From IMG/VR virus record IMGVR_UViG_3300045988_112927, positions 1 to 56,518 of that record: a stretch of DNA of 56,518 nt; one strand, given 5' to 3'. How positions within the stretch are numbered: position 1 is the first letter of the stretch; the number at the start of each line of letters is the position of its first letter. Shown piece by piece: positions 542-31,966 of this stretch. Both the position numbers and the translations under genes were made by a program. Source of the stretch: a virus. The notes beneath the pieces are model-generated. The model saw only the letters and a list, made by a program, of their open reading frames with translations. It made no database searches and had not been told where the DNA came from.

Positions 542-3500
542 ATGAGAGGAAATAATAGTCGAATGAGAAGTTATTTTAATTGTCATACACATACAATGTA
601 TTCAAATATTCGTTTGTTAGATTGTATCAATAGACCAAAAGCTCTCATTGATAAAGCCCGTGAAATGGGGTTAAGTGGTATTATGATTACTGACCATGAA
701 TGTCTTTCAGCGCATATGGAAGTAAATCAATATGCTAAAAAGCTTCAAGAAATTGACCCTGATTTCACGGTCGCTTTAGGTAATGAGATTTATTTAACTG
801 ACACTAGAGATAAGGGTCAGAAATATTATCACTTCATTCTTGGAGCGAAAGATGCTTATGGACATAAAGGACTTAGAGAATTGAGTTCTATTGCTTGGTA
901 TAATAGTTATGAGGACAGAAGAATGGAGCGTGTTCCGCTTCTGAAATCAGAACTTAGAGAAGTTATGTCCAGATATAAAGGTCATATTGTCGCAACCAGC
1001 GCTTGTATGGGCGGTGAGTTATCAACTTTAGCTTTAGCTTTAGAGTTAGCTAATGATGTTAATGATATGACCAATGCTAAAATCTACTATGACAGAATAG
1101 TGGAATTTTTGGCGTTCTGTAAAGATGTGTTCGGAGATGATTTTTATATTGAGTGCGCACCTTCGGAGAATCAGGACCAGATTATTGTAAATCATAAATT
1201 GTATAAAATAGCAAAAGCTATGGGTATGAAAATGGTTGTTGGTACTGATGCTCACTACTTAACTAAAGAAGATAGACCAGTTCATAAAGCGTACTTAAAT
1301 TCTAAAGGTGGAGAACGTGAAGTAGATGCTTTCTATGAGTTCTCTCGTTTAATGGATACTGAAGAAGTTGCAAACTTACTTATTCCATGTTTCTTAGATT
1401 TAGATGAAAATCCAGGAGACATTGTGAATTGGATTATGGATAATACTGAAGAATTAAGAAGTAAATTTACTTTTTATTCTCTTGAAAGAAAGCAGATGAT
1501 TCCTAAAGTTTCAGTGAAAGATTATCCTAAGTCAAGTGCATGGGAATATGATATGTTTCCAGTTATCAGTTCCTTACTTACAAGTGATGAAATCCAAGAG
1601 AGATATTGGATTAACGAGTGTCTTATTGAGTTAGGTAATAAAGGATTAGATGATAATATTGAATATGTAAAGCGTCTTGAGATTGAAGCTGATATTATTA
1701 AATATATTGGTGAACAATTAAATGACTGCTTATTTGCATATTTTAATACATTTAAGCATTATATTGATTTATTCTGGGAGTGCGGCAGTATCGTAGGACC
1801 GGGTCGTGGTTCTGCAACAGGTTTCTTATCAAACTATCTACTTGGTATTACTCAGCTTGACCCTATTCGTTGGAATCTTCCTTATTGGCGTTTCTTGAAT
1901 AAAGAACGTGCGGAATTGCCTGATATTGATATCGACTTGGCGCCATCAAAGCGTCCGGGAATTTTCAAGGCAATTAGAAAGGAAAGAGGGGAACTTGGAC
2001 TCGTACAGGTTGCGACATTTGGAACGGAAGGAACGAAGTCCGCAGTTCTTACAGCTTGTAGAGGTTATAGAAGTGAAGAGTATCCAGAAGGAATTGATGT
2101 TGATGAAGCTCAATATATGTCATCTTTAATTCCTCAAGAGCGTGGATTTTTATGGCCGATTGCTGATGTTATTCATGGCAATGATGAAAAGAATAGAAAA
2201 CCAGTTAATGCTTTCATTAGAGAAGTAAATCAATATCCAGGTTTATTAGATATTATTGAATCTATTGAAGGCTTGGTTAATAAGCGTTCTTCTCATGCTT
2301 CTGGTGTAATTTTATATGGAGATGACCCATATGAAACTGCGGCATTTATGAGGACTCCAAGTGGTGATTTAATCACTTGTTATGATTTGCATAAAGCAGA
2401 AGCGGCTGGAGATACAAAGTACGACTTCCTTGTAACTGAAGTTTCAGACAAAATTATTAAATGTTTTGAACTATTAACAAAAGATAAAGTAATTGAAAAT
2501 GATAGTTTAAGACAACTTTACAATAAATATTTACATCCGGAAATAATTGACACAACTAATCAAAAGATTTGGGACCACCTTGCCGCAGGAGATATTCTTG
2601 ATGTATTCCAGTTTTCTACTGGAGTAGGTCTTGCGATTGCAAAGAGACTTAAACCTCAAGACCCTATGGAAATGACGGCTGCGAACGCTATGATGAGACT
2701 TATGTCAGAGAAAGGCGTAGAGTCACAACAAGATAGATATGTTCGTATTCAATCTCAAGGTATCCAAGCCTTTGATGCTGAAATGAGAAGATTACATCTA
2801 TCAGAAGAATTTATTAAGAAGATGCATAAGCATTGTGATAAGTATTATGGATGTTGCCCCATCCAGGAGCAAATGATGGAAATGCTTATGGATATTGCGG
2901 GATTCACATTAGGCGAAGCTAATAATGCTCGTAAAATTGTTGCTAAAAAGCAAATGTCCAAGATTCCTGAACTGCGCGAGCAGGTATGGGGATGCTTTGA
3001 TGACCAGGCTACTGCGAAGTATTTCTGGGACAATGCGATTGCGCCACAGTTAGGTTATGCGTTCAGTATGAACCATTCACTTCCATATTCATTTGTTGGT
3101 ATTCAAACTATTTGCTTAGCAATCAATTTTAATCCTATTTATTGGGATACAGCTTGCTTGATTGTAAATAGTGGAGCAACTGATGAAGAAGCTGGTGGCT
3201 CAACTGATTATGGTAAAATCGCAAAAGCCATTGGAGATATTATGTCTGCTGGTATTAAAGTTAGTTTGGCTAATATCAATAAATCTGACTTTGGATTTGC
3301 GCCTGATGTTGAAAATAATAGAATTCTTTTTGGTTTGAAGGGTATGTTAAATGTTGGTGATGATATTGTCGCAAATACCATTGCAAACAGACCATATGTT
3401 TCTCCAAGAGATTTCTTAAATAAAGTAAGACCTGGAAAGCAAGCTATGATATCATTAATTAAGGGTGGAGCCTTTGATGAAATGATGGATAGAAAACTCT

Positions 3501-4438
3501 GTATGGGTTGGTATATCTGGGAAACTTGCGATAAGAAAAAGAGAATTACTTTACAGAATATGAGTGGACTTATTAGATATGGAGTAATTCCTACTGATGA
3601 TGAAAAACTCGTAACTGCAAAAAGAATCTTTGAGTTCAATAGATATTTAAAAGCAGTTTGCAAATCTCTTGACCCTAAGACTTATTACCTTGATGAAAGA
3701 GGACTTAACTTCATTATGGAGTTAGGATATGAAAATCTTTTAACTGTTGTAATGGATAACTATATGTTAGATGTTGCAGAATGGGAGAAGAAAGTATATC
3801 AGCCTTGGATGGATGTTGTTCGTAATTGGATTGCTTCTGACAAAGAAGGAATTTTAAATAAATTAAATACTTGCATCTTTAAAGAAGATTGGGATAAATA
3901 CGCTCAAGGAACATTATCAGCTTGGGAAATGGAAGTATTATGTTTCTACTATCATGACCATGAATTAAAGAATGTGAATATGGCTAAATATGGTTTATCT
4001 GATTTCCATAGTCTTCCAGAAGAGCCGGTAGTAGAAAGAACTTTCACATCTCGCGCAGGTACTGAAGTTAAGATTTTCAAAATCTTTAAGATTTGTGGAA
4101 CTTGCATTGCAAAGAATAAAACCAAAGGAACTGTAACATTATTAACTAATACAGGAGTTGTAGAAGTTAAATTCAGAAAAGAATATTTCTCATTATTCGA
4201 TAAACAAATTTCTGAGAAAGGTGCCGATGGTGTAAAGCACGTAGTTCAAAAATCATGGTTTAATCGTGGAAATATGATTGTAGTCCAAGGAATTAGGTCT
4301 GGAGATGACTTTATTGCTAAAAAATATCAAAGCACAGGTGGTCATCAACTATATCGTATCGAAGAAATTAAAGAAGATGGTTCTTTAATATTAGCGGACA
4401 GTAGGCCTTCTGGAAATCCTGAGGACGAAATTGATTAA
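542..4438 (+). CDS. dnaE: DNA polymerase III alpha subunit (DnaE-type replicative polymerase) with N-terminal PHP domain
   Basis: 1298-aa ORF. The N-terminal PHP-domain signature is HTHTxYS ... MITDHE ... GTDAHY. The body is long and PolIIIalpha-like (GLKGMLNVGDDIV-type helix-hairpin-helix region). The more likely start is the ATG at 563 (MRSYFNCHTHT), given the promoter at 498-526 and GAGGA at 548-552. Confidence 0.85.
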   Translation: MRGNNSRMRSYFNCHTHTMYSNIRLLDCINRPKALIDKAREMGLSGIMITDHECLSAHMEVNQYAKKLQEIDPDFTVALGNEIYLTDTRDKGQKYYHFILGAKDAYGHKGLRELSSIAWYNSYEDRRMERVPLLKSELREVMSRYKGHIVATSACMGGELSTLALALELANDVNDMTNAKIYYDRIVEFLAFCKDVFGDDFYIECAPSENQDQIIVNHKLYKIAKAMGMKMVVGTDAHYLTKEDRPVHKAYLNSKGGEREVDAFYEFSRLMDTEEVANLLIPCFLDLDENPGDIVNWIMDNTEELRSKFTFYSLERKQMIPKVSVKDYPKSSAWEYDMFPVISSLLTSDEIQERYWINECLIELGNKGLDDNIEYVKRLEIEADIIKYIGEQLNDCLFAYFNTFKHYIDLFWECGSIVGPGRGSATGFLSNYLLGITQLDPIRWNLPYWRFLNKERAELPDIDIDLAPSKRPGIFKAIRKERGELGLVQVATFGTEGTKSAVLTACRGYRSEEYPEGIDVDEAQYMSSLIPQERGFLWPIADVIHGNDEKNRKPVNAFIREVNQYPGLLDIIESIEGLVNKRSSHASGVILYGDDPYETAAFMRTPSGDLITCYDLHKAEAAGDTKYDFLVTEVSDKIIKCFELLTKDKVIENDSLRQLYNKYLHPEIIDTTNQKIWDHLAAGDILDVFQFSTGVGLAIAKRLKPQDPMEMTAANAMMRLMSEKGVESQQDRYVRIQSQGIQAFDAEMRRLHLSEEFIKKMHKHCDKYYGCCPIQEQMMEMLMDIAGFTLGEANNARKIVAKKQMSKIPELREQVWGCFDDQATAKYFWDNAIAPQLGYAFSMNHSLPYSFVGIQTICLAINFNPIYWDTACLIVNSGATDEEAGGSTDYGKIAKAIGDIMSAGIKVSLANINKSDFGFAPDVENNRILFGLKGMLNVGDDIVANTIANRPYVSPRDFLNKVRPGKQAMISLIKGGAFDEMMDRKLCMGWYIWETCDKKKRITLQNMSGLIRYGVIPTDDEKLVTAKRIFEFNRYLKAVCKSLDPKTYYLDERGLNFIMELGYENLLTVVMDNYMLDVAEWEKKVYQPWMDVVRNWIASDKEGILNKLNTCIFKEDWDKYAQGTLSAWEMEVLCFYYHDHELKNVNMAKYGLSDFHSLPEEPVVERTFTSRAGTEVKIFKIFKICGTCIAKNKTKGTVTLLTNTGVVEVKFRKEYFSLFDKQISEKGADGVKHVVQKSWFNRGNMIVVQGIRSGDDFIAKKYQSTGGHQLYRIEEIKEDGSLILADSRPSGNPEDEID

Positions 4439-4460
4439 ATATATAAATAAAAATCCTATA

Positions 4461-4492
4461 TATAATAACCGAGAAAAATCTTGGTTATTATA
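4461..4492 (+). promoter_or_regulatory. intergenic stem-loop (10-bp stem, 12-nt loop) between the polymerase gene and the homing endonuclease gene
   Basis: TATAATAACC (4461-4470) pairs with GGTTATTATA (4483-4492). AAGGAGG at 4494-4500 and a GTG start at 4510 follow immediately. There is no U-tract, so this is probably not a simple terminator. Confidence 0.35.
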
Positions 4493-4509
4493 TAAGGAGG
4501 TATTTATTT

Positions 4510-5238
4510 GTGTATACAGTATATATTCATAGGAATAAAAAAAATCAAAAAGTGTATGTAGGATTAACTAAACAGACTCCTCAATCAAGGTGGAGAAGAA
4601 ATGGTGAAGGCTATAAAAATCAACCTAAATTTTGGAATGCTATTAAAAAATATGGTTGGGATAATTTTGAGCATATTATATTAAAAACGGGATTAACTGC
4701 AAAAGAGGCTGGTGAACTAGAACAAAATTTAATTAAAAGTTTTAATAGTATTCAAAATGGTTATAATGCCGATGAAGGCGGAATAATAACAAATCACTCT
4801 CAAGAAACCATAGATAAAATAAAAAAAGCTATGATTGGGAAGAATCATACACAAGAAACTAAAGATAAAATTAGTAATTCTAAAAATAATGATAAAAAAA
4901 TTGTAATTTGTATTGAAACTGGTATAGAATATGAAAGTGCAGCGTATGCTATGAAACAAACTGGGATTGATAGAAGTTCTATAAGTAAAGTTTGTTATGG
5001 TACTATGAATACTGCTGGTGGATATCATTGGTGTTTTAAAGGTCAAGAACCAATTTACACTAAAGATAAACGATTTAAATCAGTTATTTGTTTAAGCACT
5101 GGAAAAATATATCCTTCTATATCTGAAGCTGCTAGAGATACAAATTCTGACCCAAGCAATATAAAAAAAGTTTGTGATGGTAAATATAAAACTACAAATA
5201 AATTAAAATGGAAATATTATCAAGGTGAAGAAGAATAG
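4510..5238 (+). CDS. GIY-YIG homing endonuclease with NUMOD3 DNA-binding repeats (free-standing)
   Basis: The N-terminus VYIHRNKKNQKVYVGLT...R...GYNADEGG has the GIY-YIG layout. It is followed by tandem NUMOD3-like motifs (HSQETIDKIKKAM, HTQETKDKISNSK) and C-terminal DNA-binding-like repeats (SISKVCYG / SNIKKVCDG). The gene is extremely AT-rich and has its own RBS and a GTG start. Confidence 0.8.
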   Translation: MYTVYIHRNKKNQKVYVGLTKQTPQSRWRRNGEGYKNQPKFWNAIKKYGWDNFEHIILKTGLTAKEAGELEQNLIKSFNSIQNGYNADEGGIITNHSQETIDKIKKAMIGKNHTQETKDKISNSKNNDKKIVICIETGIEYESAAYAMKQTGIDRSSISKVCYGTMNTAGGYHWCFKGQEPIYTKDKRFKSVICLSTGKIYPSISEAARDTNSDPSNIKKVCDGKYKTTNKLKWKYYQGEEE

Positions 5239-5245
5239 GAGGAGT

Positions 5246-5267
5246 AATGCGGCCAACCGGTCGCATT
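5246..5267 (+). terminator. GC-rich hairpin directly after the homing endonuclease gene (terminator-like, weak U-tract)
   Basis: AATGCGGCC (5246-5254) pairs with GGTCGCATT (5259-5267), 9 bp with one G-U pair and loop AACC. CUUCCUCU follows. It is a notable GC-rich island in AT-rich DNA. GGAGG at 5280-5284 then serves the next gene. Confidence 0.35.
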
Positions 5268-5289
5268 CTTCCTCTATGCGGAGGTATTA

Positions 5290-5829
5290 ATGTATAAAAT
5301 AATCGCACTTGTAGGAGAGGCTGGCAGTGGCAAAGATACTATTATGAAACACGTATTAGAAGCTTGTCCTGGACTACATGAAATTGTTAGCTGCACCACT
5401 CGTCCCATGAGAGAAGGGGAAGAAGAAGGTGTAAACTATTTTTATCTTACTAAAGAGGATTTTGCAGAAAAAGTCCTTAATGGAGAGATGTTTGAAGCAA
5501 CATGTTTTAATGGCTGGTTTTATGGAACAGCTAAACAATCTTTGAGAGAAGACGTGGTAAATATTGGAGTATTTAACCCAGAAGGAATTGAAGCTTTATT
5601 GTTAAGTAATGAAGTTGAAGTTACAGTTTATTATGTGCGCGCGTCCGATAAGAATCGTCTATTAAGGCAGCTTAGTAGAGAAAGAGACCCGGATGTAGAC
5701 GAAATTATTAGACGATTTAAAGCTGATAGAGAAGATTTCTTTGAATTGGAATTTCCATATATAGAACTTCCAAATGACACAATTCTTGGATTGGAAAATG
5801 CTGTTAAGACGATTGTGAGCCAGCTCTAA
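5290..5829 (+). CDS. gmk: guanylate kinase-like nucleoside monophosphate kinase
   Basis: P-loop IALVGEAGSGKDT. The guanylate-kinase signature block is SCTTRPMREGEEEGVNYFYLTKEDF...NGWFYGT (compare TTRxPRxGExDGxDYxFxxxxxF...YGT). Confidence 0.7.
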   Translation: MYKIIALVGEAGSGKDTIMKHVLEACPGLHEIVSCTTRPMREGEEEGVNYFYLTKEDFAEKVLNGEMFEATCFNGWFYGTAKQSLREDVVNIGVFNPEGIEALLLSNEVEVTVYYVRASDKNRLLRQLSRERDPDVDEIIRRFKADREDFFELEFPYIELPNDTILGLENAVKTIVSQL

Positions 5830-5929
5830 ACCTCTGGTGACTTAGGACAATTTTGGACATTCTATTTCATATAGTTTTCATATATGTTGTAGAGATTGTT
5901 TTCACTTTAAGAATATATGGAGGTTTGAT

Positions 5930-8158
5930 ATGAAAGTAATAAAGAGAAATGGGACTCCAGTTCCATTTGATAAAACAAAAATTGTTGACGCTATCAACAG
6001 AGCATTTTTAGAAGTTGATGGAATTTTATATGAGACAGAAACAGCAGAAGATATTGCAGAAGATATTGAAGAATTAGTTAATAAAACAAATAGTGATATT
6101 ACAGTGGAAGCTATCCAAGACTGCGTAGAAGATTTTCTTATGCGCTCAGAGCGCCGTGACGTGGCTCGCGCATATATCCGTTATAGATATAAGAAAGAAA
6201 TCGCAAGACATTACTCAGACGATTTCATTGACGCAATCTCAGAGAAATTGCGCGCCACCAATGTGCAGAACCAGAACGCCAACGTAGACGAGCATTCATT
6301 CGGCGGCCGCATGGGAGAAGCTACTGATTTATTGACAAAACAATATGCTTTAGATTTCTGTGTATCTCCAATGGCTCGTGCGAATCATTTAAACAATGAG
6401 ATTTATATTCACGATTTAGGTTCATATGCTGTTGGCATGCATAACTGTTTATCTATTCCTTTTGATGATTTATTAGCTAAAGGATTTAATACAAGACAAA
6501 CTGATGTGCGCCCGGCTAATTCAGTAAATACCGCTTTACAGCTTGTAGCAGTTGTTTTCCAGCTACAATCTCTACAGCAATTCGGAGGAGTATCTGCTAC
6601 TCATTTAGATTGGACATTAGTTCCATATGTGCGTAAGAGTTTTACAAAGCATTTAAAAGATGGTATGAAATACTTTGAAAATAAATCTGAGTATAAATTA
6701 AAAAGATTTTATAAATGGTTAGAAAAAGATTGCCATAAAGATGGTACTGTTCATTTTGATGATACTGAAATCCAAAATTTACATCCTCAAGCTTGGGATT
6801 ATGCCATGGACATGACTTTAAGAGAAACTAAGCAGGCAGTAGAAGGCATGTACCATAACTTGAATACATTACAATCAAGAAGCGGTAATCAATTACCTTT
6901 CACCTCTATTAACTATGGAACCTGTACTTTACCAGAAGGTAGAGTTGTTATTGAAGCTTTGTTGGAAGGCTCTAAAGCTGGTGTAGGTAAATTCCATAAA
7001 ACTTCTATTTTCCCTTGTGGAATTTTCCAAGTTATGAAAGGTGTTAATAAAGAACCTGGTACACCTAACTATGATTTATTTAAGAAGGCATTAGAATCAA
7101 CTGCGCAAAGATTATATCCTAATTATGCGAATGTTGATTGGAGCGGGAACGCAGGATATGATAAGAACGACCCTTGCACATATTTCTCAACAATGGGATG
7201 TAGAACCGCTAATGGTTGGGATATTAATGGTTTCGGTCAAAGAAAAGACGGACGTGGAAATATTTGTCCTGTAACAATTATTATGCCTACACTTGCTATG
7301 AAAGCAAAGAAAGAAAGTGAACGCACTGGCGCAGATATTGTTGAAACATTTATGGGTATCTTAGATAGCAAGATTTTTGAAGCAAGAGATATGTTAATTG
7401 AAAGATTTGAATATATCTGTAAACAATCTCCTAACGCAGCTAAATTCATGTATGAAAATAATGTAATGGCTGGCTATATCCCAGAAGAAGGAATTAGAAG
7501 TGCGCTTAAGCATGGTACTCTTGCTCTTGGTCAGTTAGGACTTGCGGAAACTCTTCAAATCTTAATTGGTTGCGACCATACTGAATCAAAAGGTATGGAG
7601 TTAGCTAAGAGAATTGAACAGTTATTCAAAGACCGTTGTAATCAATTTAAGGAAGAGTATAAATTAAATTTTGGTGTTTATTATACACCTGCTGAAAATT
7701 TATGCTATACTGCTATGCAGAAATTCCAAAAGAGATATGGATATATTCCAAATGTTTCAGATAAAGATTTCTTTACTAACAGTATCCACGTTCCAGTATG
7801 GAAAGAAATGTCTCCTTTTGAGAAGATTGATATTGAGTCTCAGTTAACTGGATATTCTTCTGCGGGATGTATTACTTATATTGAGTTAGATTCCGGTATT
7901 AAGAATAATCTTGATGCATTGGAAGTTTTAGTTAATTATGCTATGGATAAGGACATTCCTTATTTTGCAGTTAATGTTCCAAATGATATGTGTGAAGATT
8001 GTGGCTATACCGATGAAATCAATGATGTATGTCCTCAATGCGGCAGTCGCCATATCCGAAGATTACGCCGAGTTACTGGTTACTTAACCGGAGATTATAA
8101 AACTGCTTTCAATAAAGGAAAACAGCAAGAAACTGAAATGAGAGTGAAACATCGCTAA
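5930..8158 (+). CDS. nrdD: anaerobic ribonucleoside-triphosphate reductase (class III RNR), NrdD
   Basis: 742-aa ORF. It has an N-terminal ATP-cone (KVIKRNGTPVPFDKTKIVDAINRAF). The C-terminal Zn ribbon is CEDCGY...CPQCGS, followed by the glycyl-radical motif RRVTGYL. The RBS GGAGG lies 6 nt upstream. Confidence 0.9.
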   Translation: MKVIKRNGTPVPFDKTKIVDAINRAFLEVDGILYETETAEDIAEDIEELVNKTNSDITVEAIQDCVEDFLMRSERRDVARAYIRYRYKKEIARHYSDDFIDAISEKLRATNVQNQNANVDEHSFGGRMGEATDLLTKQYALDFCVSPMARANHLNNEIYIHDLGSYAVGMHNCLSIPFDDLLAKGFNTRQTDVRPANSVNTALQLVAVVFQLQSLQQFGGVSATHLDWTLVPYVRKSFTKHLKDGMKYFENKSEYKLKRFYKWLEKDCHKDGTVHFDDTEIQNLHPQAWDYAMDMTLRETKQAVEGMYHNLNTLQSRSGNQLPFTSINYGTCTLPEGRVVIEALLEGSKAGVGKFHKTSIFPCGIFQVMKGVNKEPGTPNYDLFKKALESTAQRLYPNYANVDWSGNAGYDKNDPCTYFSTMGCRTANGWDINGFGQRKDGRGNICPVTIIMPTLAMKAKKESERTGADIVETFMGILDSKIFEARDMLIERFEYICKQSPNAAKFMYENNVMAGYIPEEGIRSALKHGTLALGQLGLAETLQILIGCDHTESKGMELAKRIEQLFKDRCNQFKEEYKLNFGVYYTPAENLCYTAMQKFQKRYGYIPNVSDKDFFTNSIHVPVWKEMSPFEKIDIESQLTGYSSAGCITYIELDSGIKNNLDALEVLVNYAMDKDIPYFAVNVPNDMCEDCGYTDEINDVCPQCGSRHIRRLRRVTGYLTGDYKTAFNKGKQQETEMRVKHR

Positions 8159-8168
8159 GGTGATTAAA

Positions 8169-8202
8169 AATTTGCTCTGTAGACTTTACTACAGAGCAAA
8201 TT
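8169..8202. promoter_or_regulatory. perfect 14-bp stem-loop between nrdD and nrdG
   Basis: AATTTGCTCTGTAG (8169-8182) pairs with CTACAGAGCAAATT (8189-8202), with a 6-nt loop. It is flanked by A-runs on both sides. No clear U-tract follows on the + strand. Confidence 0.5.
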
Positions 8203-8231
8203 GAACATAAAAAAGTAGAAGAGGGAGTTCA

Positions 8232-8729
8232 ATGAAATACAGTGGATTAATACTTAACGATATGTCGGCGGCTCCTGGAGTCTGCGTGACGTTTTTTACA
8301 CAAGGTTGCCCACACAGATGTAAAGGTTGCCACAATCCTGAGACTTGGAATTTTGATGGTGGTAAAGAATTTACGCCTGATGTTTTAGATGAAATATGCA
8401 ATGGATTAACCGCTCAAGGAGTTAAAAGAAACTTCTGTTTAATGGGAGGAGAACCTCTTTGTTCAGAAAATTCTTTTCTTTCTTATTTAGTTGTTAAGAC
8501 TGTAAGAGAGAAAGTACCAGAAGCAAAGATATATATATGGTCTGGATATACTTTTGAGCAGTTAATTGAAAGCGGAGATAAGCGTACAAAAGATACCTTA
8601 AAAGAAGCTGATTATCTAATTGATGGTCCGTTTATAGAAGAATTGCGCGATGTCACCTTGCCGATGCGAGGAAGTAGCAATCAAAGGATTATTGATTTGA
8701 CAACTGAGTTAAAAAATGATATAATGTAA
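8232..8729 (+). CDS. nrdG: anaerobic RNR activating protein (radical SAM), NrdG
   Basis: The N-terminal CxxxCxxC cluster is GCPHRCKGCHNPETW. The size of 165 aa and the position directly downstream of nrdD are typical. Confidence 0.9.
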   Translation: MKYSGLILNDMSAAPGVCVTFFTQGCPHRCKGCHNPETWNFDGGKEFTPDVLDEICNGLTAQGVKRNFCLMGGEPLCSENSFLSYLVVKTVREKVPEAKIYIWSGYTFEQLIESGDKRTKDTLKEADYLIDGPFIEELRDVTLPMRGSSNQRIIDLTTELKNDIM

Positions 8730-8750
8730 ATAAAAGTGAGGTGTTAGTAG

Positions 8751-9266
8751 ATGGCTAATTTTATTCAAGTGGCGAATAAAAACGTTTTAACCAATCTGCG
8801 AAATCACGAAATAGGCGAACTTGCTTATGTTACAGATGAAAAGAAAATGTATGTATATAATGGCGAATGGGAAATAATGGAATCTGATGATAGCTCATTA
8901 TCAATTCCATTATATGAAATGAATAAAATGATATTAAGTGAATTACCGGCATTAAATGATGAAGAAATAGAAAAAGCAAAAGCTGTTATTCGTGAATATG
9001 TTTCAAATAATGCAGATGATTATTATATGTTATTATGCCATGAATTAAAGTATTTTACAGTATTTGCACAAGATGAATATTGTGATGTAGATGAAACTAT
9101 TGAAAATGTTATTTTTGATTGCCTAAATTATGTTGGAACTGTTAAATCTGTTGAATTATCAAAAGATGGTGGAGCCATTGAAATTTGGGTAACAACACCA
9201 GAAGACGATACATATGTCATGTATTTGTTTGATTATGGAAGGGGAATCGTACCATGCAGAATTTAG
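8751..9266 (+). CDS. hypothetical protein: N-terminal module shared with the tail-fibre N-termini, plus an acidic C-terminal domain
   Basis: MANFIQV...IGELAYVTDEKKMYVYNGEWEI aligns with the 2050-aa fibre N-terminus MANVKFL...EGSLYVTAEKVGTEW...YLYYDTNGERI. The remainder is DE-rich with no known motif. Confidence 0.5.
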   Translation: MANFIQVANKNVLTNLRNHEIGELAYVTDEKKMYVYNGEWEIMESDDSSLSIPLYEMNKMILSELPALNDEEIEKAKAVIREYVSNNADDYYMLLCHELKYFTVFAQDEYCDVDETIENVIFDCLNYVGTVKSVELSKDGGAIEIWVTTPEDDTYVMYLFDYGRGIVPCRI

Positions 9267-9532
9267 TATTTTGTAAAATCAATTTATTCGATGCTCTTCA
9301 AACCGTTATGCTAGTTAATGAGAGCGGTGCTACAGAGCTCGCGCACGTTGATTTACAGAACTTAGGACATACGATTGCTTCTGTATGTAATGAAGAAAAA
9401 GTGTTCAATGTGCGTCTTAATGGTAGTAGAGAGTATACTGAAAGTATTGCTGATGATATTAGAGTAGCTAATACATTTATGTATCATTCAAATCACGAAA
9501 TAAATATCGAGGTATCAGTAGAAGGAGAGTAA
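9254..9532 (+). CDS. hypothetical protein (92 aa)
   Basis: The ORF overlaps the upstream gene by 13 nt. No motif recognised. Confidence 0.45.
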   Translation: MQNLVFCKINLFDALQTVMLVNESGATELAHVDLQNLGHTIASVCNEEKVFNVRLNGSREYTESIADDIRVANTFMYHSNHEINIEVSVEGE

Positions 9533-9533
9533 A

Positions 9534-9779
9534 ATGAAATATTTAGTATCAACAACAGAAGTGTATAGAGTAGGAACTGTAGAAGAAGTAGAGGCTCTTC
9601 ATGAGGAACTAAAAAATGATGCAAGATTTACTTTAGTTTCTTTTAGTTATAAATATAAATGCCAGAAGCAAAAAGGTGAAATCATTGATGAGTGGCAACA
9701 GGTAACTGTTAAGAAAGAGTTCAATGAAGAGAAAAACCCTTGCACAGAAGTAGAAATTAATTATGAGGTGAAATTCTAA
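9534..9779 (+). CDS. hypothetical protein (81 aa)
   Basis: The ORF is tightly packed, and its stop overlaps the next start (TAATG). No motif recognised. Confidence 0.45.
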   Translation: MKYLVSTTEVYRVGTVEEVEALHEELKNDARFTLVSFSYKYKCQKQKGEIIDEWQQVTVKKEFNEEKNPCTEVEINYEVKF

Positions 9780-10339
9780 TGGCAAAGTTTGAAAAAGTAT
9801 CAAGAATGGCTGATGTTGATTTTGAAATGCCAAGACGTAAAACTGCGCAAAGTGCTGGATATGATATGGTTGTAGCAGAAGATGTTACTATTTATCCTGC
9901 ATTTGAGTTAATCCAAAAGATGGCAGATACTTATGACCATAAAGTATACAGTTTGGAAGAGATTGCGGCAATGACAAAATCAATTCAAGCAAAACCAACT
10001 TTGGTATCTACTGGAGTTAAATGTAAAATGGATGGAGACACTTATCTTGAACTTAGTGTTCGCAGTTCTTGTCCATTAAAGCATTGGTTAATGTTGGCTA
10101 ACAGCGTTGGTATTATTGACGCAGATTATTATAATAACTCAGATAATGAGGGAGAAATTTTCTTCCAGTTCATTAATTTGAGTCCTTTCCCAATTCGATT
10201 AAAAAAAGGAGAAGCTATTGGTCAAGGTATTATCAAGCCTTATATTAAGACTGAAGATGATACTGCGAATGGTTTGCGCGAAGGTGGCTTTGGTTCTACC
10301 GATAGCGCAGCTCAACCGACCTTAGCTCCAGCAACCTAA
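9779..10339 (+). CDS. dut: dUTP diphosphatase (trimeric dUTPase family) with an insertion between motifs I and II
   Basis: Motif I is SAGYDM. Motif III is GIIDADYYN..GEI. The motif IV-like block is AIGQGII. Motif V is REGGFGSTD. At 186 aa it is about 35-50 aa longer than minimal dUTPases. Confidence 0.75.
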   Translation: MAKFEKVSRMADVDFEMPRRKTAQSAGYDMVVAEDVTIYPAFELIQKMADTYDHKVYSLEEIAAMTKSIQAKPTLVSTGVKCKMDGDTYLELSVRSSCPLKHWLMLANSVGIIDADYYNNSDNEGEIFFQFINLSPFPIRLKKGEAIGQGIIKPYIKTEDDTANGLREGGFGSTDSAAQPTLAPAT

Positions 10340-11814: not shown

Positions 11815-12186
11815 TTAAGCCTCCTCTTTTTTAATAATCATAGTAGCAGAAACTCCATACTCAATTCCACTAAATTCACCTTCTGATTCAGCTATATCAT
11901 GTAGATTGATTAAACAAGAATTAAACTGAGTAAAATTAGTGCTTTCATATACGATACTTCCTTCCTCATTTTTTACAGTAATTTTTTGAATAGAATCTGG
12001 AATACAAAAATCACTAAGTTCTAAAAGAGTATCATTTTTTACTTGCGCACTATCAGCATCATATAAAGATAAATTTAAGTTTCGAGTTTTATTACCACGA
12101 GAATCTACTGCTATATTTTCTGTTAATTTGCCAATAGGATAGGTTTTTGAACTATCCTCGTTAATTATCAAATAATATTTTAGCAT
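11815..12186 (-). CDS. hypothetical protein (123 aa)
   Basis: An ATG start with AGGAGGG 7 nt upstream, driven by the consensus promoter at 12211-12239. No recognisable domain. Confidence 0.45.
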   Translation of the reverse strand: MLKYYLIINEDSSKTYPIGKLTENIAVDSRGNKTRNLNLSLYDADSAQVKNDTLLELSDFCIPDSIQKITVKNEEGSIVYESTNFTQFNSCLINLHDIAESEGEFSGIEYGVSATMIIKKEEA

Positions 12187-12210
12187 CTTAGTCCCTCCTA
12201 TTTTAGTTAT

Positions 12211-12239
12211 ATTATATCAAAAAATTTGGATAAAGTCAA
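12211..12239 (-). promoter_or_regulatory. consensus sigma70/SigA-type promoter on the minus strand (TTGACT - 17 - TATAAT)
   Basis: On the minus strand, TTGACT is the reverse complement of 12234-12239. A 17-nt spacer contains T6. TATAAT is the reverse complement of 12211-12216. The -35 lies inside the hairpin at the fibre gene's stop. Confidence 0.5.
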
Positions 12240-12255
12240 GTTTTTACTTGACTTT
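12232..12255 (-). terminator. hairpin spanning the stop codon of the 2050-aa fibre gene (10-bp stem, T-run downstream on the minus strand)
   Basis: AAAGTCAAGT (12232-12241) pairs with ACTTGACTTT (12246-12255). The fibre stop codon (12244-12246) is in the loop. On the minus strand the stem is followed by AUCCAAAUUUUUUG. Confidence 0.4.
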
Positions 12256-15200
12256 AATCCAAATTCGTCCGTTTACTTTAACCGGGTCTCTATCAGAGCC
12301 TTCTCCTCCACCCCACTCTTCATAAGTAGGAACGCAAGATACAGTACCAACGATTCTATCAGGATAATTAATAATTTCTTCACGAGTCATAATATCGACC
12401 GTTCCGCCCGGAGCGGCGCAAACACAATCACCAGGTTTATAATTATTTCTATCTTGATAAGTATATACAAGAACACGACCTGCTACTGCTATTGGAGTTT
12501 TAGCCTTTTCAGTCTCGCCTTGAGAGAATCCCCATGTATCTGAAGAAACACCGGCGAAATGTTGAAGTCTTTCAGTTGTTTTGGTTAAACTATCTTTTCC
12601 AGTTTCAGTTAATACATATCCATATTCGGTTGTATCAGCTTCTCGACACTCTGCGTAGTCATTCCATACTGCGCCAGTTACTGAATTACCTTCAATCCAA
12701 ATTCTCTTCCATGCATCTGCAGTTCCTGAGCGTACTGCACGATACCATAATTGGAAATGGTTTGGGTTACAGAAAATTTCTTGCCAGTAAGTAGTTCCCC
12801 ATGACATTCTTAATACTTGGACATTTGCTACAGAACCATTTTCATCACCATTACCAGCTGGGAAACTCCATAAGTTTCTGTTATTAGAACTACCTGCATA
12901 AGCATTACCAGCTGCCGTTCCCAAAGGAATTTGACCTGAAAAGTAGGTTAAAGTCTGATTATAAGCTGGAGCGCTTTGATTTGCTTTTACTTCAGTTGCC
13001 GGACCATTGAATTTAGCGGCTATAACGGTACCATTCGTCATGTCAACTTTAAAACGTTCATTAGCACCATCATGTAATCTAAAATAATTATCATAACTAT
13101 CTATACAAATTGTTTTATAAGAAGATGTCGCAGGATTTAATTTTATCTCTCCGCCTTCATGAGCAGTGTTTTGTGCAGTTACCGTTAAATATGTTGTAGT
13201 TAAAGCACCAGTCATGGTGTCTCCAGACTTTTTAACATAACGACCATCAAGAGTATTCATATATGTTGCAGTATTTAACAAAGTACCACTTGAAGCTGGC
13301 AAATAATTAGTATAATTAGCATCAGAGGTTGTAGCTATTAATGCATTATACCCTTCTCCTGCGCTATATAAATAAATTTCTCCTCTTTGGTTTCCTGTAG
13401 TTTCGTTAACTTTATAAGCATTACCAAGAGTCATTCTCATAAAACCTATATTGGCGGCTTGATAATAATAGTAACATCTTAATCTTGCTCCATCAGAGCT
13501 GTAAATTTGTCCATCGGTACTATTTATAAGAGGTAAATACCAGTTAACATCTTGATTTGCTGTTCTTGTAGTAGAATATACAAGTCTACCAAGATGAACT
13601 CCCATATAACCAGAAGCATTGGGAATCGTTACGGTTCTATTAGAAGTAGCAACTGCGGACTGAATATTAGTATATGCTGTTCTAGTACCATAAATCCATA
13701 AATTTCCTCTGGCATTATGAGCACCGCTTGTAGAAGCTACATCTTTATTATTACCAATTCTTAATACCATAACACCAGCAGTACCATTTGTAGTTGTAAC
13801 AGTGCCATCTGAGGCAGTAGATTGAGTTGCGGCTGTACCTATTTTAGATACATACATACCTAAAGTTTCAACAGAAGATTCTCTAAACCATAATCCAACA
13901 TTAATTGCAGCAACATCTATATAAGTATTACCATTAAATGAAGATGTTCCCTTTACATATAGCTTATGTCCAAAGTCTACCCCACCAATGCTTACATTAT
14001 TCAGATGTGCTTGCGCGCTACTGTTAACATAGTAAGTTGTTCCATTGGCAAAATATGTAATACCATTATGAGTAACATTGCCATCAAATTTAGTGGTACC
14101 ATTTACATATAATCTATATGAAGTGTTTCTACTAGTTTGTCCAAGAGCTAAATATGGTAGTGAAGCAGCTCCTGTTGTATGGTCCATGATTAAACCATAC
14201 ACCGAATAAGTAGTTTGTTTTGCACTATTATAATTACATCTAATAGAGAATACTCCACCCTCATTAGCTAATTGCCAAGAAGCATTTCCACCTCTCCATA
14301 ACTCAATACCGACATTACCACTACCACCATTTAATTCAGAACTTACGATTAATTGTCCAGTTACATTCGATGAACTAGATGCGTTACCTTCAATTCTTAA
14401 TCTACCAGTATTAGAACTTAATGACATTCTTGCTGTTGGCTTAGTTGTTGCTGCAACACTAGCATTAGAAGTAGCCTCCCAAATCCATCCATATCCTGCG
14501 GCATTCTCAATTAAACTTCTTCTTGCCCATGAAGTAACTTCTGTCGTCGTAGATGGCTTTCCATTAGTAGGACATAATCCATCTTGTGGGTCAGACATAT
14601 AATCTACCCATGTATAATAATTAGGATGATACCAATAGATACGACCATTAGTATTCCCACCAGCTCTGTTGAGCATCAATCTATTTCCACTAATATATCC
14701 AAGACCACTAATAGAAGCAACGTTAGTTGAACCTCTTTTGAAAATCCAACCTCTATTACCTGTATCACTCATAGTGAAATAAGTAGCCCAGTCGCTAGTT
14801 ACATATGAATGAGTTCCCGCACTTGAAGTCTGTCTAAAATAAATAGCATAGCTTGAAGATGCATTATATAAAGTAATACCGCCATCACTACCAGAGCCAC
14901 CCATATTAGTATGTAACCATCTTGTGTACATACCATTAAAATAGTTACCTGAAGTACCAATAGATTGAGCATTAGCTTGCCCAACTTCTGCTTTAACTGG
15001 AATTACAGCACCAGCAGTGGTAACTTGTATACCAATTCTATTTGCTATAGTATCTGCATTAGCTTCAATATTAACAGCACCATCTGCTAATAAATATAAA
15101 ACCTCTGTTCCACCTGCAACTGACATGCTTTGCGCAGACTCTCCGGCGCCAATAATAGTAACTCCACCACCACCAATAGAAATACCATTGCCGTGAGCAT

Positions 15201-18200
15201 CTGAAGTATTATCGATAACTCTAATTAAAGAAGTTGTAGCTTGAGTACCAATAGCATAAATGTTTCCATTCTTTGGTAAATATACATTTCCGTTTAAGTA
15301 TGAGGTTCCTTGCACATATAAATTATATCCGATGTTTGCGGCGCCACCGACACTTACAATAGGTAAAAATGTATGACCTGAACTATTGATATAATATGTA
15401 GAACCTCCTGCAAAATAAGCAGTACCATGAGTTCTAGTACCATTTGTAAAGATTTCAAATCTTGTTTTTGGAACTGTTGAATCACACACTGCAGTCCAAG
15501 AACCACTTACAGCAGTTTCGTATGTTTGGAATAAATGACCTGCGGCTACATGACGAATTCTGTCTGGACCCGAACCATTTACAGCAGTCATTGAAGATGT
15601 AGAACCCATGTCATTACCTTTAAATAAAAGTAATTCAGAAGATTCACTATCACCCCATCTGTTTTCACCGATATAAGTATGATTAAAACTTCCGGCTCCA
15701 TCACCAGTAGTACCATAGAATGCAATATAGTTGGTATCTCCGTTCGCATTATTACCAACTCTTAATCCATTATTAAAAGTAGCAGTACTATTTACTGTTA
15801 AAGTATTAAATTTTGCATTAGCAGAATTATCAATATAATATGTCGTACCATTAGCAAAATATAATATACCATTAAATAAACTGTTATCTGTAACTTTTAA
15901 AGCGTAATTAGTATCTGGCGCAACCCTAATTCCAACTGAACGAGCGAAATAACCATCACCACTTGAATTAGCATAAAAAGTTGAACCACCCGTTTTAAAT
16001 TGAGTGGTCGCATTAAATGTATACGCAAATACTTCTTTCCATCTTGTACCAGTTGTACCAATATCCTGAGCATTATTAGATGTAGCCAATGGAACACCAG
16101 GAAATATTGTATTACCAGAACCATTTAATAATGTTAATGTGCGTTTTACTGTAGCAAAAACCCCACTATATTGACGAACATGAATTGGTTCATTGTAATC
16201 ATCAGCCGTAGCAATTTCCAAATAACCACCATTTGAAGCGGTTGCTCCTGCTCGAATTCTTGCATAATCATTATCGCCAACAGTCCATTGAATGCCTTTA
16301 GCTAGACCAGAAGATATATTAGGGAAATAAATCATTCCTGTAAATGTTTTATCTCCTGCAATAGTTTGTGCGGCGTTGGTTATTACGCCCGCAGAACTAG
16401 CACTAGCGACCGGAACGTTGATTGCCGCAAGGTCAGCACCAGTACCATCCTTATATGTCAAAGTTACTGTAGTTCCAGTGCTACTAAATGCCATAGAAGA
16501 AACATATTTTGAAGAAATAGTATTTCCTCTATCATCAGCATATGCTCGAGCAGCCATACCTTCTACTACATCAACAATCAATTTTGCAAAACCAGAAGTA
16601 GAAACCTTATTAGTTGCATTAGCTACAATAGTTGCCCATGTATCTGTTGCCCCTGGGTTAAATTTGAATTTATCATTCTTAACTGGAGTTCCAACATTAC
16701 TACTATGAGAAAACCATACATTACGTGCGCTATTGCCAGTATTATTTTCAATACCAGAGTAATTAAAACCGCTTGCCTTTTGGATTGTTAAAGAACCATT
16801 AGAGTCAAGAGTTTTTGCGCCAGTTAGTGTTTGCGCTCCGGTCGTAATAGCGCCAGCCGCACTAGCACTTGCAGTAGGAAAATCAACAGTAGCCTTTAAT
16901 GCTCCACTTCCACTATATAGATTAACAACAACTTTAGTTGTTTTATTTGTAGTACCATCAAATCCAATATTAGCTAAATAATGTGTTTTGAACACATTAT
17001 TCATATCATCAGTTTTAGCTCCATCTGCACTTGAAGCATGATTTGCTTCTTGAACAGTAGCACCATCACTTGCTACAATAGTATTTGTGTATGTAACACC
17101 TAATTTTGTAGCACCATCTGAAATTGATGTATAACACTCTGTTGAAGTTTTTTTATCAGCAGAAGTAGTATTATCAACTTCAGTAGAACTAATTAAAGTC
17201 CAACTTCTACTACCTTGTAATTGATAAACAGTACATCTAGGCCAAGTACCAACTTTATAATATAAATCTGCTAATGAATTACCTGATGTATTTCTTAATC
17301 CAATTTGTAAAGCATCTTTTGATATATTATATCTATATAACCATTTAATAGTAGCATTAGCAGTATTGCCAGTAGAAATATTATTAGTTCTTAAAGAAAC
17401 TTTAGCTACACCATATCCTCCGCCATCATAACTATGACGAATTGCAATTATCATTTCTTTATCATTATAACTAGCTGTTACATTGCCAGTAGTTGCAATT
17501 CTATGCCAAGGATAATTAGCAGTATTACCTCCACCAACAGAACAAGAATAACTTCTTGCATTTAAAGTAACATTTTTACTTCCGTCAATAGTTACAACAC
17601 CTTGCAAATCTTCAGCTAAAGTAATATTTCTAGCATTAAGCCATTTATCTGCAGTAGCCGCATTACCATTTAAACTACCAGTTACATTACCATTTAATGC
17701 ACCATTAAAAGTTGTTGCATTAATAGTAATACCATAAATAATCTTCCAACGTAATTTATCAGTACCAAGACTCAGACTGTTATCTGCTTTTGGTTGAACA
17801 TTTCCACCAAATTGTGTAGTACCACCATCATTATTGATATAAATAATTGAAGCAGTAGTGCCATTTGATTTGGCTTGAATTTCATTAGCATCTATAGCAA
17901 TATGCGAACCAGTAGGCGAACCGATTAATAAAGAGCCAGAGTTTGCTGTAGCTGCGGCAGCGTCGATTCCACCGGTAATAACTACCTGACCCGTAAAAGT
18001 CTTTTTACCAGCAAAAGTCTGCGCGCCGGTAATCACAGTTCCGGCCGTAGTAGCTGAAGCAACCGGCATTAATATAGTCGTAGTATTACCATCACCTTTG
18101 GTATAAGTTAAAGTTACACCATCTGTGCTAGCATACTTTGTTCCTTCCATAGAAATTGCTTTTATGTACGTTTGAGCAATATTTTGGTTTCTGTCATCCT

Positions 18201-31926: not shown

Positions 31927-31966
31927 ACAAACCTGGCCTATATAGACCAGGTTTGTTTATTTAATT
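31927..31966. terminator. hairpin with flanking A/T tracts immediately downstream of the 1884-aa gene stop
   Basis: ACAAACCTGG (31927-31936) pairs with CCAGGTTTGT (31947-31956). One extra C-G pair is interrupted by a mismatch. TTTATTTAATT follows on the + strand and AAATTA precedes. Confidence 0.45.

Follow-up and report, generated by a model that had tools for sequence, protein, structure and literature searches.

What kind of element separates the replicase gene dnaE from the guanylate kinase gene gmk in an uncultured gut phage, and what do the hairpins at its two ends represent? The question is raised by a 56,518-nucleotide stretch of viral DNA (IMG/VR record IMGVR_UViG_3300045988_112927, positions 1 to 56,518; hereafter the window), in which an open reading frame (ORF) at 4510-5238 lies between these two genes with a stem-loop on either side. 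A preliminary description of the locus had proposed a homing endonuclease cassette whose flanking hairpins might be either remnants of the insertion site or determinants of expression and immunity. Taking the comparative evidence as a whole, the explanation that we consider probable is an intact I-TevI-type endonuclease gene, which would move by intronless homing at the dnaE/gmk junction and whose expression would be restrained by the hairpin in its leader.

The endonuclease gene and its place among relatives

The ORF at 4510-5238 (+ strand) is a single reading frame encoding 242 amino acids, with a GTG start and a TAG stop. In every relative the homologous start codon is ATG, followed by TAT ACA GTA, which identifies the GTG of the window as the homologous start, and a Shine-Dalgarno (SD) sequence, AGGAGG, is located at 4495-4500 (+ strand), 9 nucleotides (nt) 5' of it. 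Searches against Pfam identified a GIY-YIG domain at residues 1-86 (PF01541, 1.1e-9; 38.9 bits against a cutoff of 22.6), a NUMOD3 motif at residues 96-122 that passed marginally (21.0 bits against 20.4) and an I-HmuI_NUMOD-like match at residues 140-173 (1.8e-8; 34.2 bits against 27), together with a NUMOD1 match that fell under its cutoff (21.5 bits against 22.8). Two helix-turn-helix (HTH) modules were delimited at residues 130-176 and 190-235. The protein also passes the TIGR01453 model, ‘group I intron endonuclease’, over residues 3-226 (69.7 bits against 56.05), and matches the ‘homing endonuclease’ family PHROG 314 (phrog_314) at 6e-39. The Pfam and TIGR01453 matches and the SD sequence bear out the preliminary description of a GIY-YIG/NUMOD3 endonuclease with a ribosome-binding site (RBS) and a GTG start.

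Across an alignment of 26 homologs, residues Y5, Y16, G18, R27, E71 and N86 never vary, and they line up with the I-TevI set Y6, Y17, G19, R27, E75 and N90 (Tyr, Tyr-x-Gly, Arg, Glu, Asn); the ‘GIY’ motif of the window protein reads T-V-Y, with the tyrosine retained. A PDB search with the single endonuclease sequence did not retrieve I-TevI, for which a family profile was required; this profile matched the I-TevI catalytic domain (1MK0, E 2.1e-7, with I-TevI residues 5-92 aligned) and, weakly, the I-TevI DNA-binding domain (1I3J, E 0.009). The catalytic residues, on whose retention the preliminary description had staked its proposal, are thus intact by both the alignment and the profile match. 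The ratio of nonsynonymous to synonymous substitution (dN/dS) was 0.075 against the homolog in relative L097 and 0.12 against that in L100, the comparison being restricted to these two because in-frame TAG codons invalidate the values for L101 and L103. Given that synonymous changes greatly outnumber replacement changes, the endonuclease is under purifying selection and is no decaying relic; the best-conserved segment of the gene is its 3' end, corresponding to the second HTH module. As first described, the cassette is AT-richer than its surroundings, its GC content being 26-30% within the gene, against 31-41% on either side.

An Rfam search of 3800-6200, with an E threshold of up to 1, returned no family at its gathering score and no ribozyme; the only entry listed, antisense_SR1, was rejected as a chance match to a small RNA family (26.5 bits against 45). 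Since dnaE ends at 4438, gmk begins at 5290 and no Rfam ribozyme is present, the gene is intergenic and lies outside any intron. On these sequence features, we conclude that the ORF encodes a free-standing GIY-YIG homing endonuclease of the I-TevI type, intact and of predicted activity.

To place the gene in its comparative setting, we used 80 IMG/VR contigs whose DnaE C-terminus is 62-86% identical to that of the window, and across which the order dnaE-gmk-nrdD-nrdG is kept. The dnaE/gmk junction is devoid of an endonuclease gene in 78 of them, the other two (L027 and L028) having a different GIY-YIG gene of 32% identity, apparently the product of a separate invasion of this junction. That gene (L027:5330-6172; L028:7220-8062) has two in-frame TAGs and is followed by a small Cys-rich ORF. 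At empty sites, dnaE is followed either by gmk or by a zinc-ribbon ORF of 64-79 amino acids, and the next start in most cases overlaps the dnaE stop or directly adjoins it, with a gap of -8 to +25 nt, or of about 200 nt with the zinc-ribbon ORF.

Homologs at 55-93% identity were found solely in ENA, Logan and NCBI assemblies. Eleven variants spanning 55-100% identity were examined (the window, P0001, P0002, P0008, P0014, P0018, P0033, P0034, P0046, P0030 and P0062, the last from L192). In all eleven the endonuclease gene lies directly 3' of dnaE, at a spacing of 64-80 nt, and this position is held in relatives whose DnaE C-terminus shares as little as 42-45% identity with that of the window; the gene that follows varies between gmk, the zinc-ribbon ORF and, in L101, a DUF3310 gene with a class II reductase. 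The IMG/VR relatives of the endonuclease are all at most 48% identical and sit mostly at other loci (1 of 80 near dnaE/gmk), so that the homologs of at least 55% identity constitute a position-specific clade.

The comparison with cassette-free genomes proposed in the preliminary description therefore separates empty from occupied junctions at a single site. Its picture of a self-contained, free-standing cassette between dnaE and the nucleotide-metabolism genes holds, the cassette being absent from the junction in about 80 syntenic relatives. Rather than recurring at unrelated loci without flanking structure, the cassette is found at the dnaE junction in every variant, each time with an upstream structure. 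Its position beside dnaE and upstream of nrdD was also correctly described, with gmk (5290-5829) preceding nrdD (5930-8158). An endonuclease-free allele of this exact phage was not found. Contigs L091-L093, which had appeared to be such alleles with an identical gmk, were rejected, as they carry the same endonuclease 3' end, called in the wrong frame where the contig ends.

In several relatives TAG is read as glutamine, and the endonuclease genes of these relatives have two to five in-frame TAGs at sites occupied by CAA or CAG in the window. These codons were located at 6037-6039 and 6112-6114 in L101, at 6037-6039, 6112-6114 and 6136-6138 in L103, and also in the genes of L185, L189 and L192. 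The dnaE tail of L073 (GGA CAC TAG CTA TAT AAA) has a TAG at a conserved glutamine, and L028:7220-8075 is listed among the TAG-recoded loci. Gene calling under genetic code 11 splits or truncates such genes in public records. One example is P0062 in GCA_017940785.1: ‘truncated’ homologs of this kind (166 amino acids for P0062) were considered as signs of degeneration and rejected, as the L192 gene is full length with two in-frame TAGs, and the truncation is an artefact of code-11 calling. In the 56 kb of the window the code is standard, with TAG serving as the stop of 4 of 28 ORFs; no in-frame TAGs were found in window ORFs of 1,650-2,490 amino acids, and no transfer RNA genes were found in the 56 kb.

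Candidate target and evidence for movement

At empty sites the end of dnaE is conserved at the nucleotide level (CGT TAT CAA GGA GGA ATT GAA GAA GAT G.. TAA), and includes both AAGGAGG, the SD sequence, and ATG, the start, of the overlapping downstream gene. The C-terminal tail of the carrier dnaE (4403-4438, + strand), encoding R-PSGNPEDEID-stop, is without the TAYCARGG and AAGGAGG of endonuclease-free relatives. TAYCARGG was present in 29 of 41 distinct empty-site tails and in none of 11 distinct carrier tails (Fisher p = 2e-5, uncorrected for phylogeny), and an SD-like motif occurred within the last 36 nt of the tail in 36 of 41 empty-site and 3 of 11 carrier sequences. Homing endonucleases exploit sites of this type, in which coding, ribosome binding and initiation all constrain the sequence. 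The conserved dnaE-tail/SD/ATG junction of endonuclease-free phages is the likely target, and the diverged carrier tail at 4403-4438 a candidate for a target version immune to cleavage. Alternatively, with the endonuclease gene intervening, the tail may have been freed from SD duty and drifted; the carrier sequences are compatible with both readings, which may hold together.

Traces of the original insertion may also persist at the right-hand end of the gene. The final codons of the endonuclease (5218-5238, + strand; TAT CAA GGT GAA GAA GAA TAG) resemble the dnaE tail of L076 (local alignment p ~0.015). L101 has a dnaE-tail-like AAGATATCAAGGAGAAGTAGAAGATG right after the endonuclease stop, leading into the next gene (p<0.005), and the endonuclease of L189 ends in ..GAAGATGTATAA followed by gmk, as dnaE does in empty sites, forming a fused remnant. 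These resemblances suggest, in a reconstruction that we hold loosely, an ancestral insertion just upstream of TATCAAGG, near 4405/4406, with a right edge near 5217/5218. The dnaE tails of L027 and L028, next to their unrelated GIY-YIG gene, are likewise without the RYQG/TATCAAGG motif.

Comparison of the window with L097 revealed a sharply bounded block of similarity. The best two-breakpoint partition placed its limits at 4242 and 5234, with 92.0% identity over 993 columns inside, 63.0% upstream and 60.8% in gmk. The exchanged block comprises the last 197 nt of dnaE (4242-4438, + strand; 91.4% identical to L097, against 63% further upstream), the leader and nearly the whole endonuclease gene, ending at its final codons. 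In intronless homing, a free-standing endonuclease gene is copied together with DNA up to the cut in a neighbouring gene (PMC2988022), and because the gene and the DNA toward the cut are copied together, the L097 block has the form of the expected homing footprint. It points to a recent lateral transfer with co-conversion of the 3' end of dnaE, although ordinary recombination could yield the same pattern.

A different relationship was found with L100, where identity to the window is uniform at 75-88% over dnaE, leader, endonuclease, gmk and nrdD, which indicates vertical or shared descent. This uniformity, the constant locus maintained down to DnaE identities of 42-45% and the strong purifying selection would all suit a long-resident, immobile gene that is inherited vertically and benefits its host by excluding competitors or by promoting local recombination or amplification, its patchiness reflecting repeated loss. 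A role of this kind has a possible precedent in the T4-type SegB, reported to aid immune evasion by promoting amplification of anti-defence loci (PMC13096335). We nevertheless consider such residence rather improbable, given that the 92% block within flanks of about 62% points to a transfer event, that the endonuclease is closer to that of the window than is the adjacent DnaE C-terminus in 6 of 9 comparisons (among them 93 vs 69, 79 vs 63, 61 vs 45 and 58 vs 42), and that the endonuclease-free L001 (DnaE C-terminus 86%) nests between the carriers L100 (89%) and L097 (69%). Moreover, excluding competitors and homing are the same biochemical act, so that residence and homing differ here mainly in emphasis.

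The flanking hairpins and a proposed mechanism

The structured 5' leader of the endonuclease gene extends over 4439-4515 (+ strand; -31.7 kcal/mol, z -8.5), with an outer stem (4439-4451/4503-4515) that encloses the GTG start. Inside it, an AU-rich hairpin at 4454-4498 (+ strand; -21.3 kcal/mol, z -8.2) has a 16-bp stem (4459-4474/4479-4494) with an AAAA loop, and at its base a 4-bp extension pairs TCCT (4454-4457) with AGGA (4495-4498), four of the six SD bases. None of 200 shuffled sequences folded as stably, and among 26 gene leaders of the window that of the endonuclease is the most stable (-28.2 against a mean of -11.9, standard deviation 7.1). The upstream stem-loop originally placed at 4461-4492 is thus real, and larger than described. 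Every carrier leader folds with a z score of -4.7 to -9.0, with the SD sequence predicted to be partly or fully paired.

A homologous stem was identified in six leaders (the window, L097, L100, L101, L103 and L185), in which 96.9% of the cells of the 16-bp stem pair, compared with 36-49% in slid controls. Five of the 16 pairs are altered on both sides, for example from A-U to G-C in L101, and columns 43/54 present the series G-C / G.U / A-U. Since the G.U pairs (4471/4482 in the window, others in L185) would be mismatches in DNA or in antisense RNA, the conserved structure is that of the sense-strand RNA. In L186, L188, L189 and L190, hairpins of unrelated sequence occupy the same place, with a 3' arm that ends in or contains the SD sequence. 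Stems in the upstream leaders are 16-24 bp long and AU-rich, with no U-tract before the SD sequence, and in several lineages they form a near-perfect duplex of 20-24 bp. Structure and placement are therefore kept across sub-clades, in contrast to the sequence. At empty sites there is no space for a leader structure of this kind. Together, these findings identify the upstream hairpin as a part of the cassette, and the predicted folds suggest that it probably serves as an expression control keeping nuclease production low.

The downstream GC-rich hairpin, described at 5246-5267, is also real; it folds over 5238-5275 (+ strand; inner stem 5246-5267) with -26 kcal/mol and a z score of -4.8. From 5234 on, only 59% identity to L097 remains, which leaves this hairpin outside the exchanged block. 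A small zinc-ribbon ORF (CxxCG ... CxxxxCDG, 64-79 amino acids) precedes gmk both in the carriers L100 (6724-6942) and L103 (6720-6929) and in the non-carriers L001 (7193-7411), L003 (7181-7402), L010, L019, L024 and L055; it had no match in the Pfam-independent libraries NCBIfam and PHROGs. A GC hairpin lies at the codons for C-G-x-x-M-R-H-T in several of these ORFs, with stems that differ by lineage (GGCGC/GCGCC, GGTGGGGA/TCCCCACT and GGTTCCA/TGGAACC). The stem sequence and the encoded residues vary and the pairing is kept, which suggests a nucleic-acid structure selected within a coding region. Between the near-identical contigs L004 (1045-1068) and L001 (7249-7272), the loop of this hairpin is exactly inverted (GATTAT vs ATAATC), by which L004 gains a TAA stop; this could be either a real template switch at the palindrome or an assembly artefact.

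In the window, a 16-codon mini-ORF (MRPTGRILPLCGGINV; 5247-5297, + strand) overlaps the gmk ATG. Its start resembles MRHTGMVL and it ends in ..NV-stop, comparable to the ..MRHTGMVL.. and ..ENV-stop of the zinc-ribbon ORF in L100 and L001, where the full ORF overlaps gmk in the same manner, and L097 retains an analogous mini-ORF (MRPTIRILPLFWRKI). Judged by these resemblances, the downstream hairpin and mini-ORF are the remnant of an internally deleted zinc-ribbon ORF, a putative relic of the insertion neighbourhood. Of the two roles first suggested for the hairpins, expression control thus appears to fit the upstream one, which belongs to the cassette, and the remnant role fits the downstream one, a relic that is not part of the cassette. 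The mini-ORF may relay translation to gmk; in all these genomes each stop along the series of endonuclease gene, ORF or mini-ORF and gmk abuts or overlaps the next start, and translational coupling along the operon seems to be preserved.

Stable stem-loops right after two stop codons, the downstream one GC-rich and succeeded by a pyrimidine-rich stretch (UUCUUCCUCU), also call to mind transcription termination, with the upstream hairpin acting as an intrinsic terminator or insulator of dnaE and the downstream hairpin ending the endonuclease transcript. We regard this as improbable. A consensus scan of 3800-6200 finds no terminator-like site, the long AU-rich upstream stems reach the SD sequence without a U-tract, and in relatives the downstream hairpin lies within a coding ORF. 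Further, gmk, nrdD and nrdG are on the same strand with short junctions, and no + strand sigma-70-type promoter was found between the endonuclease gene and gmk, so that efficient termination would starve all three genes.

That the upstream palindrome works instead as DNA, either as an autorepression operator for the endonuclease or as a cruciform or recombination site at the cassette border, we judge more doubtful still. It is a near-perfect inverted repeat immediately upstream of the gene, and I-TevI is known to autorepress through an operator resembling its homing site (PMC2988022). A search for such mimicry detected no significant similarity between the leader or translation start and the putative target junction (p 0.58), and this candidate was rejected. 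The G.U pairs of the stem also argue against a DNA-level role, as does the wholly different hairpin sequence of L186, L188, L189 and L190: an operator should co-vary with the DNA-binding domain, yet the hairpin changes while the second HTH module is the best-conserved part of the gene. Least probable of all is that the long stem is an RNase III-type processing site which splits dnaE from the endonuclease/gmk message and sets their stabilities, since, even though the length of the 20-24 bp stems fits double-strand-specific RNases, as the processing sites of T7 and lambda indicate, the constant feature across unrelated hairpins is a 3' arm abutting or including the SD sequence, a placement which SD occlusion predicts and processing alone does not.

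For the intact, hairpin-restrained homing endonuclease that we favour, the following course of events can be proposed. In a mixed infection, the enzyme would cut an endonuclease-free genome in or near the dnaE tail/SD/start junction (CGTTATCAAGGAGG; CGT TAT CAA GGA GGA ATT GAA GAA GAT G), and repair off the carrier genome would copy the endonuclease gene with the adjacent 3' end of dnaE; carrier genomes would be protected by a dnaE tail that no longer has the target sequence. The leader hairpin would move with the gene and, on transcripts reading through from dnaE, would fold away the SD sequence and start codon, making translation of the nuclease low or conditional. Relief may come from ribosomes that terminate on dnaE just upstream, or from a shorter transcript starting inside the hairpin as in T4. 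The downstream hairpin and mini-ORF, as putative zinc-ribbon leftovers, would now link the endonuclease stop to the gmk start.

Several observations weigh against this explanation. Conservation of the putative target is also accounted for by the embedded SD sequence of the overlapping downstream gene. The proposed transfer footprint is known for one pair only, and the other carriers would fit long vertical residence. For the leader, the apparent covariation rests on six homologous sequences with 11 of the 16 stem pairs invariant, and the shuffle control gives no probability. Predicted SD occlusion is partial in the window, with four of six bases paired, and several of the pairs in relatives are G.U. 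Finally, the consensus scan for sigma-70 promoters and intrinsic terminators over 3800-6200 found none that was relevant on the + strand at either hairpin. Most leaders do have a -10-like TATAAT or TATAGT box in their 5' arm or loop, without a -35 element or TG extension; such boxes are expected by chance in DNA of 27% GC, and none was listed by the scan.

A more far-reaching version of the mechanism, which we think unlikely but more credible than the rival explanations above, would treat leader and gene as a portable, self-insulating module. Its translation would be licensed only by ribosomes terminating on dnaE, and it would have spread across genetic codes, with TAG codons as a second, late gate in hosts that read TAG as glutamine; its target would be a junction so constrained by coding, ribosome binding and initiation as to be hard to mutate away. 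If true, nuclease output would be tied to replicase expression.

Gene neighbourhood and known counterparts

The genes surrounding the cassette were assigned by Pfam annotation as dnaE (542-4438), gmk (5290-5829; Guanylate_kin, 3.6e-18), nrdD (5930-8158) and nrdG (8232-8729), all on the + strand, with gmk, nrdD and nrdG separated by short or overlapping junctions. An identical endonuclease protein is encoded, in unchanged context, by one ENA gut-metagenome contig of 190,353 bp and by eight shorter contigs from the gut. A near-identity nucleotide search with 3400-6400 against 50,697 deposited phage genomes gave no match; among those genomes, the top protein matches to the endonuclease are 26-37% identical, and DnaE has its best relatives, at about 39% identity, in Bacillus phages of the SPbeta group and in large Enterococcus phages. 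On the strength of this DnaE affinity and of the missing nucleotide match in deposited genomes, the phage is not T4-like. The T4-like setting assumed in the preliminary description therefore has to be given up in favour of a gut-metagenome phage of about 190 kb, for which the seg and mob genes of T4 are an analogy and not kin.

In the window, dnaE and nrdD are uninterrupted, and in many relatives nrdD or dnaE is split by other endonuclease genes. The splitting genes encode GIY-YIG, HNH_3 and LAGLIDADG proteins and a NUMOD3-only ORF, presumably as intronic or gene-splitting insertions, and were located at L100:8903-9856, L186:9199-10127, L188:1248-2299 and 7136-10120, and L101:2342-3401, with others in L026, L041, L043, L045, L031 and L054. 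In this phage clade, the block of replication and nucleotide-metabolism genes forms a hot spot of mobile endonucleases.

Other features of the region were also recorded. The gap between nrdD and nrdG holds a 12-bp perfect hairpin (8172-8199; TTTGCTCTGTAG/CTACAGAGCAAA; leader fold -21.4 kcal/mol) that leaves the nrdG SD sequence untouched. In the leader of a - strand ORF (11815-12186), a near-consensus promoter follows a hairpin at 12186-12244 (TTGACT - 17 nt - TGATATAAT), which indicates that the phage uses sigma-70/sigma-A-like promoters elsewhere; the endonuclease leader is promoter-poor by contrast. Most of the remainder of the window is taken up by five very large - strand ORFs of 1,649-2,486 amino acids (12244-18396, 21535-28995, 31965-37619, 44157-49106 and 49222-56514), one of which has a faint BppL_N (baseplate/receptor-binding) match in public annotation. 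About 1.4 kb 5' of the first base of the window, the 190-kb phage contig (L081:721-2115) encodes a 464-residue protein with a methyl-accepting chemotaxis signalling domain (PF00015), an unusual gene for a phage; a lysozyme-like gene and one for a PIF1/UvrD-type helicase are its neighbours.

These results alter no concept: the cassette is an ordinary selfish gene of known type in a new phage clade. They extend the T4 picture, a GIY-YIG gene by replication or nucleotide genes with a hairpin burying its RBS, to unrelated, uncultured, DnaE-replicating large gut phages, and they provide a clean comparative set of about 80 empty and 11 occupied sites, one transfer block with mapped breakpoints and several unrelated hairpins in the same structural role, in which both the candidate target and the probable regulatory RNA are defined. 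For annotation, such cassettes and their adjacent relics account for local AT-rich islands, unusual hairpins and mini-ORFs within the replication modules of phages, and code-11 calling truncates these endonuclease genes in TAG-recoded relatives.

The closest parallels are the T4 genes SegA-SegG, especially SegB, SegF and SegG, which share with the window a GIY-YIG gene placed between two conserved, co-oriented genes and present or absent among relatives. Adjacent markers, too, are apparently co-converted here (4242-5234), as in the intronless homing described in PMC2988022. Unlike the T4 genes, the present one, of predicted activity, resides in a DnaE-replicase gut phage, has dnaE and none of the T4 targets as its putative target gene, and has a DNA-binding tail made up of NUMOD3 and two NUMOD1/I-HmuI-like HTH modules. 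I-TevI of the T4 td intron (1MK0, 1LN0, 1I3J) is matched in the catalytic set, the TIGR01453 pass, the weak HTH similarity and an RBS in a leader hairpin. It differs in that the window gene is intergenic, with no ribozyme in 3800-6200; neither an I-TevI-like zinc-finger linker nor an operator-like similarity to the putative target was identified here.

Hairpins that sequester the RBS are described for I-TevI, I-TevII, I-TevIII, T4 segB and Aeh1 mobE; these keep long early transcripts from being translated, and a late promoter located within the fold circumvents them (PMC2988022). The window leader resembles this set, as well as seg43(25) of Aeromonas phage 25, in placing a very stable hairpin at or over the SD sequence of an operon-embedded endonuclease gene. 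Whereas T4 has a mapped late promoter within the structure, the window leader has a -10-like box only, and no promoter by scan. In all lineages, no more than about 20 nt separate the dnaE stop from the anti-SD or anti-start strand, a spacing which suggests that relief would come from terminating ribosomes rather than from an internal promoter. In Agate gut phages, recoded stop codons in an intron endonuclease have been proposed to delay its production to late infection (bioRxiv 10.1101/2021.08.26.457843, Borges et al.). The in-frame TAGs at glutamine positions in the homologs of our TAG-recoded relatives are similar, with the differences that the window phage uses the standard code in this 56 kb, that recoding in its relatives is from TAG to Gln and not from TGA to Trp, and that the gene is free-standing and not intron-encoded. 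Every element of the locus thus has a well-studied T4-type counterpart, to which the comparative series adds its usefulness.

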